Shown: piece after piece, positions 26-63,977 of the stretch
Layout of the letters: every line of letters starts with the position of its first letter
Numbering within the stretch: the stretch's first letter is position 1
NCBI RefSeq assembly: GCF_030144855.1
Contig: NC_082731.1
Coordinates: 20,150,001-20,214,000, forward strand
Direction of reading: 5' to 3'
DNA: 64,000 nt
DNA from: Hypanus sabinus
Taxonomy: Eukaryota
Notes under the pieces: generated by a model
What the model saw: only the letters and a program-made list of their open reading frames with translations
The model's database searches: none
Told to the model about the DNA's origin: nothing
Made by a program: the position numbers and the translations under genes

Positions 26-326
26 GAGCAATTGGGAAAGATTCCGTGACGCAGTGGCCGACTGATGTAACGATTGTGGAAGATCAAAATCTAACACTGA
101 ACTGTAATTACACTGGCGATCCTTACTATCTCTATTGGTACGTTCAGCATCGAGTGGAATCTCCAAAATACTTGCTAAGGTTGTCTAGTACCGGAAAGAT
201 GGAGCGGCATGCAGAATGTCCGACGAGGTTTACCGGTGATTTGCAGAGTGGCAGCAAGGAGGCACATTTGAAGATCTCTGGTGCTCACGTGTCGGACTCC
301 GCCGTGTATCTTTGTGCCATGAGTCC
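26..326 (+). CDS. TRAV: TCR alpha/delta variable segment V1, V exon (leader exon upstream of window)
   Basis: Acceptor ttttattgcAG at 24-25. Open frame GAIGKDSVTQWPTD...LNCNY...LYWYVQH...SPKYLL...RFTG...AHLKISG..VSDSAVYLCAMS with Ig-V Cys/Trp/Cys, followed by a 23-RSS. Confidence 0.9.
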
Positions 327-365
327 CACAGTGTTGTAAGGTGATGACAGCGCGGGACAAAATCC
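327..365 (+). other. 23-bp-spacer recombination signal sequence of V1
   Basis: CACAGTG (327-333) + 23 nt + ACAAAATCC (357-365). Confidence 0.95.
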
Positions 366-385
366 GTCCATGATGCAGTGAGCGG

Positions 386-399
386 TCGCTAGAGGGAGC
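386..399 (+). promoter_or_regulatory. Putative CTCF-binding element downstream of V1 RSS
   Basis: TCGCTAGAGGGAGC resembles core CCASYAGRKGGCRS; 20 nt after the nonamer; same position in all paralogs. Confidence 0.65.
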
Positions 400-529
400 C
401 CTTTGTCCGGAGGTTGCCAGGAGCGCAGAAACAGATCCTCACGGTCACGTGATCGACTTAAGAATGCGAATATTATTCGCAGAAGATATGCAGATTTGAG
501 TAAATTTCCGCCAATGGAATGTGTACCAA

Positions 530-3020
530 TTTCCACAAATGGAAAAGTTATTGAATATTTCCCAAACTCATGCAATATGTTAGTTGATGCAGGGGAAATA
601 GCATCGATAGCTGACCTGGATTTGCCATCAAATAGATAGGAAGTTTATATTACGTGTGCAGGAGAAATAACAGTGAAAATAGAAAGAAGCAAATTGCGGA
701 TACTCGAAATAGGCGAGGCGCCACTCTCAGTGTATTTCTGGATACGTCCAAATAATGTGTGTAGAATTCTCCGACTAGACACTGAAAGGGAAACAAGGGT
801 CATTGTAGATACAGGAAATGGTGAAATAATATGCACAAGCCAGGGGCAGCGAGCACGTACAATCAAATCGATGCACAACGCGTAATCGCACTGACAGCTG
901 TTCACAGGTCAGTAACAGTAGTTAGGGACACTGGAATTAACCCCGCGAGTACACTCTCACAGAGAGGGCGGCACATTGATGTCAAATAGGAATAGAGCAG
1001 GAAAAAGATACGGGTACAAAGGATACATCTTTGGAGGGAAAGCAGGGAATCGATTTGTGGATGGTTCTCGGAGGTATATAAACTAGAACACACGGATTGG
1101 GTGCAGTGTGGTGAAGGGTGCAGGTGAAGAATGAGCTTCAGCAGCACTGCCAGGGGATTGCTAAGCTCAGGGAGTGGACCAGCTGGTCCCGACAGAAACA
1201 ATGCGCTACAGTAAAGGCAGACAAACAAATATATATGCAGACAGCCCGTATACCTTCGGGACGGTTATCGGATGGCCTGGGGCGATGATGATTTGTAACC
1301 ACAAAGGGTGCAGGTATTCAGCACGGGCACCCAATAAAACAACTGCTTGAAGCACTCTCTGCCAGCTCAAGTAACCGTAATTAAAGTGGAATCTCAGTAG
1401 TAAGAGAAGGGTAAGGAGCAGAAAGTAATAACAATAAATTGCAACTGTGCAGGATGAAACGCCGGAAGCCAGTTGAATAAAAACAGACCGCTCCGAGGAG
1501 ACACTTGGATACCATTCAAAAAGAAGGGGAAAAAGCTTAAGTCTCGTTATTATGAAGAATAGAAAACCTGCAGATGCTGAAAACCAAGAAATACACACAA
1601 AGTGCTGGAGGAATTGACCTGGACAGGCAGCATCTCAGTAGTTATGATCAGTAATTTAGCTACCTGGCCTCCTGCGTTTTTCTGGCATATTGTGTGTATT
1701 GCCTTGTAATTATGGATCACTTCAGCCCGCGGGGAGACGCTTTCCGAACCAGACACTGCATCGCCAACAGCGCAGCACGGATTGTTGTAAGATATTCTTA
1801 TGAAGGTGAAGAACACTTGTAGGGGGCTGTGACCAAGAAGTACATTTCACAGAGAAAGTGATAAATGAAATGTGCCGACTGCGAGGGATTCGACAACAGT
1901 TCCACATCCCCTACCACGAAGGACGCGGTCTATAAGATTAGTGCGCCTTTAAGCTTCCGGACCTGGAGGCGGGCTGATTCGAGGGCAGTGCTGCCGCCTG
2001 ATGTGTTGTGTGAGTACACGGGGGACCTAAAGCAGCAAGAACGAGAGACCCGTGTTCTTTGGACACAGAGCTCGGGAAAAGCGACGCTACCGACTTTGAA
2101 CACCATAAATCAGCCAGATGTTTGTTATGTCTCTCCTGTCGCTGTGACACGGGAACACCTCTTTCCCCTTATTAAGGAGAACGAGAGCTTGTGATATGTG
2201 GAATACTCGGTGAACGAATTGCCTTTGATGTTCTGTATATATCCGTTTTTCTTGATGCTTTGCCTCAGGCCTGAGTGCTCTTACCGGGTGCCCATGCTTT
2301 CTACTGGTGGTGGGGGGGGGGGGGGGGGCGGGTACGGGGTGTTTGTTGCTCTCATGCTGTTTATGCCTGTCAGGGGAGTTGGATTTGCGTTTCTAATCTC
2401 TGCCATTCATTCTTTGCGGCACACCTCTGTTTTCCTGGATATTTCAGAAGAAATAATTTTTCAGGATTTATATTCTATATATTTTTCTGACAATAAGTAT
2501 ACCTATTTAACCCATGGAACATATTGAGTTCTCAGTGTTCAGGAAAGGTAGAAACATAAACGAAAGAATACCTTTGCCAAAATTACAGCTGCCCGAGAAA
2601 GACATGGGTTGATGTTTTACCATTCATGCTGATGAGATTGCGAGCACGCTGGTTTTCAGCCGCTATGAGTTATTGATAACGTGAAAAACCGGATTCCTTA
2701 TGGGATAATTACGGGTTGAGGTGAGCCTGGGGTGTGTAGGGACAGCCCGACTCAGTTTGTGAAAGAGCTTTGTATGCGACCTATCGCATTGAAAGATCGA
2801 GCAAAACAACAGTGGCACATTGATGACCGGAGAGATCCATTGGGAAAGGAGATAGTCCTCCGAAATCACCGTGACCAGCTCATGGTGAGGGTGTTGATTG
2901 AAAGTGCATGTTCCCAGATCGATCGGACCACAGATGGTACTTTAAAAAAGTGATTCGTACTTTTGTGAAAGCTTCACGAGGCATCCAGTGGGATTCAGGT
3001 TATAGTGTAAGACTCACCTT
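530..3020 (+). mobile_element. Degenerate gamma/epsilon-like ERV pol remnant (protease, RT deleted, RNase H, integrase), copy E1
   Basis: MLVDAG (protease), FVDGSRR (RNase H), VIMDHFS.R.DAF, SQCSGKVE, FSRYEL and WIQV..CK (integrase). Many stops and frameshifts. Confidence 0.85.
1876..2525 (+). mobile_element. Unclassified retroposon-like repeat (about 650 bp) inserted in the ERV integrase
   Basis: Splits integrase between EMC and SQCSGKVE. Same insert in all six pol copies; related free copies at about 39720 and 48960. Confidence 0.6.

Positions 3021-62757: not shown

Positions 62758-62842
<85 letters not shown>
62758..62842. repeat. (GA)n microsatellite
   Basis: Direct read. Confidence 0.95.
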
Positions 62843-62846
<4 letters not shown>

Positions 62847-63369
62847 CAAGATGATAAATAAGACTCAATATTCACCAGACCAATTCCTGAAATGAATTTA
62901 CCTGCAGAGAGGAATATAGAAAAAGACCAAGCATTGAGAAAAGACACACGGAATAAATGCCGGAGAGTCAGAGAGCCCTATGGAGAACATGTCATAATGA
63001 ATGAGGGATAGATAGATAGAGAGATAGATAGTTAGACAGATGGAGAACGAGAGAGTGGATGTGAGTGTGAGAGAGAGGTTTTGTAGAACAGATAGAACGA
63101 ATGAGGGGCAAGCATATGGTAAGAATATAGAGCTTTGAAGAATAGAGGGCTATCGATAAGCCTCGGTAGTTCTAAGGTAAGGACATGCTCAGCATAGCTT
63201 TGTGGTCCGAACGGCCTGTATTGTGCTGTAGGTTTTCTATGTTTCAGTGCTTCTAGTGAGAGAGACTGCAAATAAGAGAAAGGAGGAGAAACATTTCGAG
63301 GAAGTAATACGAGATAGAAAGTGGTGTAAAGGCAAGCAAAAACAACAAAAAGAACTGAAACAAAATGTG

Positions 63370-63410
63370 ATTGGTGTCCGGACCGGATTCATTCGGCGCT
63401 CACAGCCAAT
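63370..63410 (+). promoter_or_regulatory. V5 promoter inverted CCAAT pair
   Basis: ATTGG 63370-74 and CCAAT 63406-10. Confidence 0.6.
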
Positions 63411-63544
63411 CAATGCAACGGCAGGACTGCGCCCCCACATTTACGGAAGCTGACATATGCCTAAGGTCTGATGTTACTCTTCAGTATCGGTCAGGGATAT
63501 TAACTTACTGGACTGCAAGTAAGCTGTCTTTCGAACCGGACACC

Positions 63545-63977
63545 ATGAATTTCCTGTGCTTTCTGCTGATTATATTTGCTTTGATGCCCGGTGAGTCTTC
63601 GCGGTAACGGTCCGTATCTGTTCCTTATGTCCGGAGAAAGCTCGATTTGTTCACGCATTCTGTCATTTTATTGCAGGAGCAATGGGGAAAGATTCCGTGA
63701 CGCAATGGCCGACTGATATAACGATTGTGGAAGATCAAAATGTAACACTGAACTGCAATTACACTGGTAATCCTTACAATCTCTCTTGGTACATTCAGCA
63801 TCGAGTGGAACCTCCAAAATACTTGCTAAATATGTACAGCAGCGGAAAAATTGAGCGTCATGCAGAATGTCCGGCGCGGTTTTCTGGTGGTTGGTAGAGA
63901 GACAACAAGACAGCACATTTGGAGATCTCTGGTGCTTTCGTGTCGGACTCCGCCGTGTACCTTTGTGCCATCAGTCC
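63545..63977 (+). pseudogene. TRAV: TCR alpha/delta V segment V5 with one in-frame stop (leader 63545-63590, V exon 63677-63977)
   Basis: TAG at 63895-97 where V4 has CAG; otherwise intact. Confidence 0.88.

Follow-up and report, generated by a model that had tools for sequence, protein, structure and literature searches.

According to the available portions of the respective reports, an ancient endogenous retrovirus (ERV), HERV16, is repeated in the duplication unit that, in the MHC (major histocompatibility complex) of humans, carries the MIC and HLA class I genes and was proposed as a site of unequal crossover (PMC6562477), ERV-like or LINE-like (long interspersed nuclear element) repeats lie upstream of the duplicated TRM (T-cell receptor (TCR) mu) clusters of marsupials, where crossover at the repeats was likewise proposed (PMC7615758), and in young KZFP clusters of the mouse ERV copy number grows by segmental duplication and not by retrotransposition (PMC12575710). 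Here we describe a comparable arrangement in a 64-kb stretch of DNA, hereafter the window, to which all counts of V segments, ERV copies and units given below refer. Judged by the closest named ERV proteins, the host is likely a ray or another cartilaginous fish, and the window contains five V segments of one TCR alpha/delta-type family together with repeated remnants of an ERV. We propose, with a probability of roughly 0.85, that one ERV would have inserted just 3' of an ancestral V segment, decayed, and then been duplicated as a passenger in tandem blocks of about 6 kb.

Shared junctions and lesions of the ERV copies

The V segments, each with its recombination signal sequence (RSS), and the ERV remnants, in which reverse transcriptase (RT) is missing and a 3' long terminal repeat (LTR) is often retained, are arranged as follows:

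V1, 16..365 (+): V exon and 23-RSS; codons 34-324, RSS 327-365; leader outside the window; frame open; Pfam V-set E=5.7e-14
ERV remnant U1, 571..4250 (+): protease, RT deleted, RNase H, integrase with retroposon ~1919-2527, 0.8 kb unassigned, purine tract 3876-3886, 3' LTR 3887-4250
V2, 16029..16500 (+): leader, intron, V exon, 23-RSS 16462-16500; frame open
ERV remnant U2, 5' part, 16711..19227 (+): protease, RNase H, integrase with retroposon 18060-18642
4.3 kb inversion, 19228..23525 (-): distal U2 (22152-23526, LTR ~22356-22729) and a partial V-less unit (20188-21287, 19224-20109)
V3, 23887..24358 (+): leader, intron, V exon, 23-RSS 24320-24358; frame open
ERV remnant U3, 24565..30801 (+): integrase split by a 4.1 kb insertion at ~25767-29900; 3' end truncated
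U42, 41985..45427 (+): V-less, 5'-truncated ERV copy; LTR from 45068
U51, 51220..54683 (+): V-less, 5'-truncated ERV copy; LTR from 54316; recent duplicate of U42, block 93.7% identical
V4, 57409..57880 (+): leader, intron, V exon, 23-RSS 57842-57880; ATG 57409; frame open
ERV remnant U4, 58090..61594 (+): protease, RNase H, integrase with retroposon 59242-59847, unassigned 60400-61213, purine tract 61214-61224, 3' LTR 61225-61594
V5, 63545..64000 (+): ATG 63545; in-frame stop 63895; RSS heptamer 63978, cut off by the window end

Protease homology begins at 571, 16711, ~24565-24583 and 58090, that is 205-210 nt past the nonamer of V1-V4, and ERV and V lie on the same strand in all four units. 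An earlier prediction made from this stretch (the original prediction) had recognized the co-oriented ERV behind each of V1-V4 but placed it too close, at 150-200 nt after the RSS. The junction between RSS and ERV is collinear in 4/4 V-bearing units. RNase H and integrase matches were found at six places, in agreement with the six pol copies predicted, those at 41985 and 51220 being 5'-truncated and V-less. The protease-to-tether junction left by the RT deletion is collinear in all six copies, and in all six a retroposon of 0.6 kb occupies one site in the integrase core, so that both lesions are common to all copies as had been claimed. The purine tract, the 3' LTR and the 3' flank are shared by the five copies that reach that far (5/5), all five unit LTRs continuing into the same host flank. 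These shared lesions point to a single insertion that was probably already dead when it was duplicated, and together with the matching divergences described below they uphold the original prediction that one ERV settled beside an ancestral V and was co-amplified. Junctions or flanks differing from copy to copy, which would have spoken against it, were looked for, and the same 5' junction was found in all four V-bearing units and the same 3' flank in all five copies that extend to it.

The same observations bear on two other explanations. Related ERVs might have inserted independently behind several V genes through a target preference, and the family did insert nearby more than once, as one further element illustrates:

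Solo LTR, 38287..38662 (+): related subfamily; identity to the unit LTRs ~69%; ends TG...CA; 5-bp flanks, one mismatch; second copy by duplication at 47529-47900

This solo LTR, which by its sequence belongs to the same ERV lineage and entered the locus independently, is 31-33% divergent from the unit LTRs and has flanks of its own, whereas the unit copies agree in the point of their 5' truncation, in the RT deletion, in the retroposon nested within them and in the host flank on the 3' side. Independent insertion has next to no chance of being correct, and for the copies in the window the sequence of their shared flanks refutes it. The copies might also have been created by the assembly, since the window contains three N gaps and two of the four V-to-V intervals include such gaps. 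This is extremely improbable: the copies are 15-25% different and carry private indels, and even in the youngest pair identity does not exceed 93.7%, an L1 insertion bounded by a 14-bp target-site duplication setting its members apart.

Identification of the remnant required a U2 reading frame with X placed at the stops; with single stop-free open reading frames (ORFs) the Pfam signals were weak (RVP E=0.19, rve E=0.004), and neither a word-index match nor a relevant PDB match was obtained. The U2 frame matched the RNase H of XMRV/MLV (E=9e-4) as well as 27 library proteins, and retroviral pol domains (protease, RNase H, tether or integrase) were detected in 17 of the 18 of these that were scanned. 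A tblastn map indicated that the retroviral order is kept (protease, tether end, second RNase H, integrase), the closest named ERV proteins being a Mobula hypostoma gag-protease (52-63% identity in the protease) and a Hypanus sabinus RNase H. In U2 protease homology stops at 17016 and tether-end homology resumes at 17035, therefore RT, which occupies this position in full-length relatives, and most of the tether were lost. Three full-length query proteins gave no match across the RT span in the window, 48 proteins including the Mobula hypostoma gag-protease gave no gag or RT match, and no LTR match was found upstream of the protease; we read the absence of 5' LTR, gag and RT as probable deletion. 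A 250-codon open frame at 16531-17283, running through spacer, protease, RT deletion and RNase H start, exists in U2 only and is likely due to chance because the other copies have stops. Parts of the 0.6 kb insert recur elsewhere in the window and have a far greater depth in contigs of relatives, depth not being taken here as a measure of copy number.

Between integrase and purine tract lies an unassigned stretch of ~0.8 kb, and a search of 24 frames from the six copies detected no env family at E up to 0.5. In 5/5 copies TG, the LTR start, comes after the purine tract, at the same point where the independent solo element at 38287 begins, and the 3' LTR of ~370 bp ends in CA in 3/5 copies and in TA in U42 and U51. 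A V segment lying inside a provirus, between shared LTRs, was considered and rejected: no consistent primer-binding-like site follows the LTR and gag is missing. An RNase H tree built with 15 of 33 matching proteins, avoiding near-duplicates, placed the remnant on a long branch in no supported ERV class. Lokiretroviruses, which RT phylogeny places as sister to known retroviruses, have an env like a paramyxovirus fusion protein (PF00523), and the available main text of that report mentions no shark, cartilaginous fish or Chondrichthyes (PMC7947760). No PF00523 match was obtained in the 24 frames of the six remnant copies.

Layout of the array and its V segments

The distance from the V4 ATG (57409) to the V5 ATG (63545) is 6136 bp, exactly as predicted, and the ERV-derived part makes up 3505 bp of it (57%), insert included. 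The remainder behind the LTR is host DNA:

Host part of the unit, 61595..63544 (+): post-LTR flank, GA-rich tract, short high-copy repeat, V promoter region

When this V4-V5 unit was mapped over the window, the part order proved the same in all intervals once insertions were removed. The V-to-V spacings are 16135, 7858, 33522 and 6136 bp, therefore 6.1 kb is one intact period and not the step of a regular array. The original prediction of an amplification unit of about 6.1 kb that joins V and ERV thus holds for the V4-V5 period but not for the other spacings, nor for the seven ERV-bearing units that face five V segments, three of which (U42, U51 and the inverted partial seventh) are V-less. 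For the ancestral block about 6 kb is a reasonable figure, but it does not describe the present array.

The long intervals owe their length to identifiable events. The V1-V2 interval (16135 bp) contains L1-type insertions and two gaps; two decayed L1-type elements face each other between U1 and V2, at 5158-9540 (+) and 9836-13400 (-). The V2-V3 interval (7858 bp) includes the 4.3 kb inversion with distal U2 and the partial V-less unit, and the inverted fragments that had been predicted could be located at 20188-21287 and 22152-23526. The V3-V4 interval (33522 bp) holds U3, followed by the V-less U42 and U51. The 4.1 kb insertion in U3 is presumably LINE-like, a label that Pfam did not confirm. 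An L1-type element at 33729-37877 has long open frames (RVT_1 E=7e-40), a poly-A-like tail and the 14-bp target-site duplication, and is younger than the recent duplication because it is present in only one duplicate. Two tRNA-Leu(TAA) genes on the minus strand, at 39294-39376 and 48532-48614, also lie within the V array and were copied by the recent duplication.

All five V segments display the expected hallmarks of both cysteines and the tryptophan in their translations, and the alignment of V2-V5 includes leader exon and intron. V1 and V2, the only two scanned, exceeded the Pfam cut-off for V-set. Heptamers are located at 327, 16462, 24320, 57842 and 63978, and a 23-nt spacer and nonamer follow in 4/5 RSSs (V1-V4), that of V5 being interrupted by the window end; an exact search for the canonical RSS returned 0 matches, the nonamer being off by one base. 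Many of the 60 PDB matches shown for V2 are TCR alpha chains, the top match being an antibody diabody with a similar E-value, and one 46% relative looks like a rearranged V-J domain. Neither a J nor a C gene was seen within the window, tblastn detected no sixth V remnant anywhere in it, and a V-end pattern search in metagenome contigs gave 0 loci. The family appears to be of TCR alpha/delta type, alpha and delta V being indistinguishable here; the available part of a nurse shark report describes V segments shared between alpha and delta (PMC5931798).

Framework dN (nonsynonymous divergence) was 0.087 and dS (synonymous divergence) 0.20, from which the V frameworks appear to be kept under purifying selection while the ERV decayed neutrally. 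As a separate observation, leader and intron differ by 5-9% between V genes, against 11-17% for the V exons and 13-17% for the promoters, which would reflect either constraint or gene conversion. The segments compared by sequence alignment were:

16029-16170 (V2), leader and intron
23887-24028 (V3), leader and intron
57409-57550 (V4), leader and intron
63545-63686 (V5), leader and intron

Divergence, exchange and rearrangement

Kimura two-parameter (K2P) distances between the old ERV copies were 0.15-0.26 in every segment, and 0.03-0.06 for the recent pair U42/U51; distances of U3b over 120-130 columns (0.20-0.36, truncation edges) were excluded from this range. The dS of the V exons was 0.14-0.32 with a mean of 0.24, and the match between ERV and V synonymous divergences is as co-duplication with selection on the V only predicts. 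Both V and ERV trees are star-like. In the ERV trees U42 and U51 group with U2 in the protease-RNase H segment (99/97) and in the integrase (100/99). In a tract at 57854-58162, extending from the RSS spacer to the protease start, 13 of 16 informative sites unite U1+U3 versus U2+U4, against 11 of 52 elsewhere, a signal matched in 14/1000 permutations (p=0.014). This distribution indicates that at least one exchange between units probably moved RSS and junction together.

The history that we propose would have begun with the integration of a provirus near an ancestral V. Before any of the copies split, the provirus would have lost its 5' LTR, gag and RT and gained the retroposon. An early burst of duplication, likely by unequal crossover, would then account for the star-like trees and the 15-25% divergence. 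Later events may have comprised at least one exchange across the RSS-ERV junction, V loss from some units, the inversion of 4.3 kb, insertions of LINEs and, once, the recent duplication of a unit without V. We infer this order of integration, decay, burst and later events from junctions, lesions, part order and equal divergences that are read directly in the copies.

Several points weigh against this history. The left target-site duplication is gone with the 5' LTR, leaving the insertion point visible only indirectly, and the family count covers this window only. No branch of the V tree gained support (values 69/76; quartet sites 3/1/3), and the ERV segments yield differing weak topologies along the unit. 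The comparison of V and ERV trees envisaged in the original prediction was carried out, and it agreed in the divergences; because the V tree has no supported branch, congruence is neither shown nor rejected. Finally, the ~210 nt beside the RSS matched neither a retroviral protein nor the LTR of these units; judged by these negative searches, they are likely host DNA, the alternative being an unrecognisable end of gag.

We considered whether the ERV had itself driven the amplification, its 3.5 kb of dispersed homology serving as the main substrate of unequal crossover and setting V birth and death. The ERV fills 57% of the unit, the exchange tract described above points to recombination between units, and, in the portions available, the same model was proposed for HERV16-HLA (PMC6562477), the marsupial TRM clusters (PMC7615758) and the mouse KZFP clusters (PMC12575710). 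A lone ERV copy, however, is unable to seed the first duplication, and from then on homology extends over the whole unit. The recent duplication, in which no V was copied, has its junction at ~46283-46378, within GA-rich sequence that lies outside the ERV. The inversion joins non-homologous points, only one of which is inside the ERV, so that neither of the two mappable events was an ERV-to-ERV recombination. The exchange tract itself consists mostly of RSS and spacer and enters the ERV at one end, with only ~70 nt of protease. We therefore regard a driving role as possible but unlikely: the predicted promotion of unequal crossover by ERV homology finds partial support in one exchange tract, but the homology of the whole unit and the positions of both mappable events speak against it. 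At the inversion, both ends (19227/19228 and 23525/23526) are flanked by a stretch of 11-12 nt, and a fragment inside it, at 21572-22109, runs opposite to its neighbours, therefore a second event likely took place there.

The 3' LTR could also have been co-opted as enhancer or promoter of the V array and retained for that role. Its end at 61594 is ~1.95 kb away from the next V start downstream, at 63545, and the LTR was kept in 5/7 ERV-bearing units. Its copies nevertheless differ by 15-18%, on par with and no less than pol, and V2 and V3 are open even though U3 has no LTR and the LTR of U2 is inverted. The LTR is moreover 3.3 kb away from the RSS. Such co-option is highly unlikely. The suggestion in the original prediction that the ERV adds regulatory sequence beside the RSSs is likewise unsupported, the adjacent 210 nt having no retroviral match and the distant LTR diverging in a neutral-like manner. 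Driver and regulator roles of the ERV are both unsupported, and we retain the passenger reading.

The spacer beside the RSS and comparison with known systems

The DNA between RSS and ERV carries a motif of possible interest, located as follows:

RSS-ERV spacer of the V4 unit, 57881..58089 (+): 209 nt; spacer sequence present only behind V1-V4; CTCF-like motif 57904-57917; origin likely host
CTCF-like motif by motif match: 386-399, 16524-16537, 24382-24395 and 57904-57917

Using a sequence that we take to be the CTCF consensus, we found this motif 20-23 nt 3' of the nonamer in 4/4 cases (V1-V4), with 1-2 mismatches and outside the ERV homology; V2 and V4 have an overlapping match on the opposite strand as well. 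Over the window there are 14 matches, compared with 8.5 +/- 2.8 by chance, and 7/100 shuffles reach 14, which is no enrichment over the chance expectation. The motif is conserved at 17 of 20 columns (invariant), which 39 of 928 pol windows equal, the copies being related by descent, and the exchange tract may have inflated this conservation. An E-box-like hexamer is present in the spacers of V1-V3 (3/4).

Relatives were compared through ten public runs with seven organism codes that held 5-12% of the sampled words, four of the ten being compared at 80% likeness. All 30 bins were covered in each of these four. No RNA run was listed among the ten, an outcome that is neutral as to expression. Among the 32 pieces listed out of more than 54,000, one X3 contig spans V exon, RSS and spacer, and one X3 and one X1 contig bridge spacer and protease. 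In the window no spacer is present except behind a V, and the V-RSS-spacer-ERV arrangement is therefore likely older than the divergence of these organisms. In 4/4 of the compared runs there were joints that leave out the retroposon from 59242; with sides of 22-24 letters and middles unknown, we regard them as a faint indication of relatives without the insert and did not count them.

In the available part of a study on the mouse, CTCF-binding elements lie directly 3' of the RSS in proximal VH genes (PMC7930373). The motif behind V1-V4 resembles them in its position tens of bases 3' of the RSS and differs in being a predicted match only, with 1-2 mismatches and outside the ERV. Analysed in this way it is a lead, comparable to the mouse VH elements. 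It is doubtful that the selected cargo of the duplicon is the 210-nt spacer, with a functional CTCF site ~23 nt 3' of each RSS, and not the ERV. If this were true, RSS-adjacent CTCF stalling of RAG scanning would already have been active in a cartilaginous-fish TCR alpha/delta locus, and the dead ERV would act as an internal clock of neutral change, and as a marker of breakpoints, by which V births and exchanges could be dated across rays. A functional site would also bear on the age of loop-extrusion control of V choice.

The passenger reading makes the array a clear example of antigen-receptor V birth and death to which a neutral marker is joined. With ~10x more neutral sites than a V exon, the 3.5 kb fossil can date V duplications, show units exchanging DNA across the RSS, and expose V losses, here the three V-less units, that exon-only annotation misses. 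We found no literature report of a V-plus-ERV unit in cartilaginous fish in a search outside of which most subscription papers fall.

Compared with the systems introduced at the outset, as far as the available portions of those reports describe them, the locus is of the HERV16-HLA kind: flanks and lesions are common to the ERV copies that accompany the duplicated gene, which were copied as DNA, not re-inserted. It differs in that the gene is a rearranging V segment, the unit measures ~6 kb, the ERV starts ~210 nt from the RSS and was already without its 5' half and RT when amplification began, and the host is probably a cartilaginous fish (PMC6562477). With the marsupial TRM clusters it shares an ERV-like repeat that accompanies each duplicated unit in a TCR locus, but the marsupial unit comprises an entire cluster and has its repeat upstream, and the present one a single V with the ERV downstream (PMC7615758). 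As in the mouse KZFP clusters, the ERV multiplied via segmental duplication; those clusters are young and their genes repress ERVs, whereas the present array is old and no functional link was seen (PMC12575710). We conclude that this is a passenger ERV in a V duplicon, akin to HERV16-HLA, a pattern known from mammals that requires no new mechanism, and that it extends the gene-plus-ERV duplicon from the mammalian MHC, TRM and KZFP clusters to a TCR locus of a likely cartilaginous fish.

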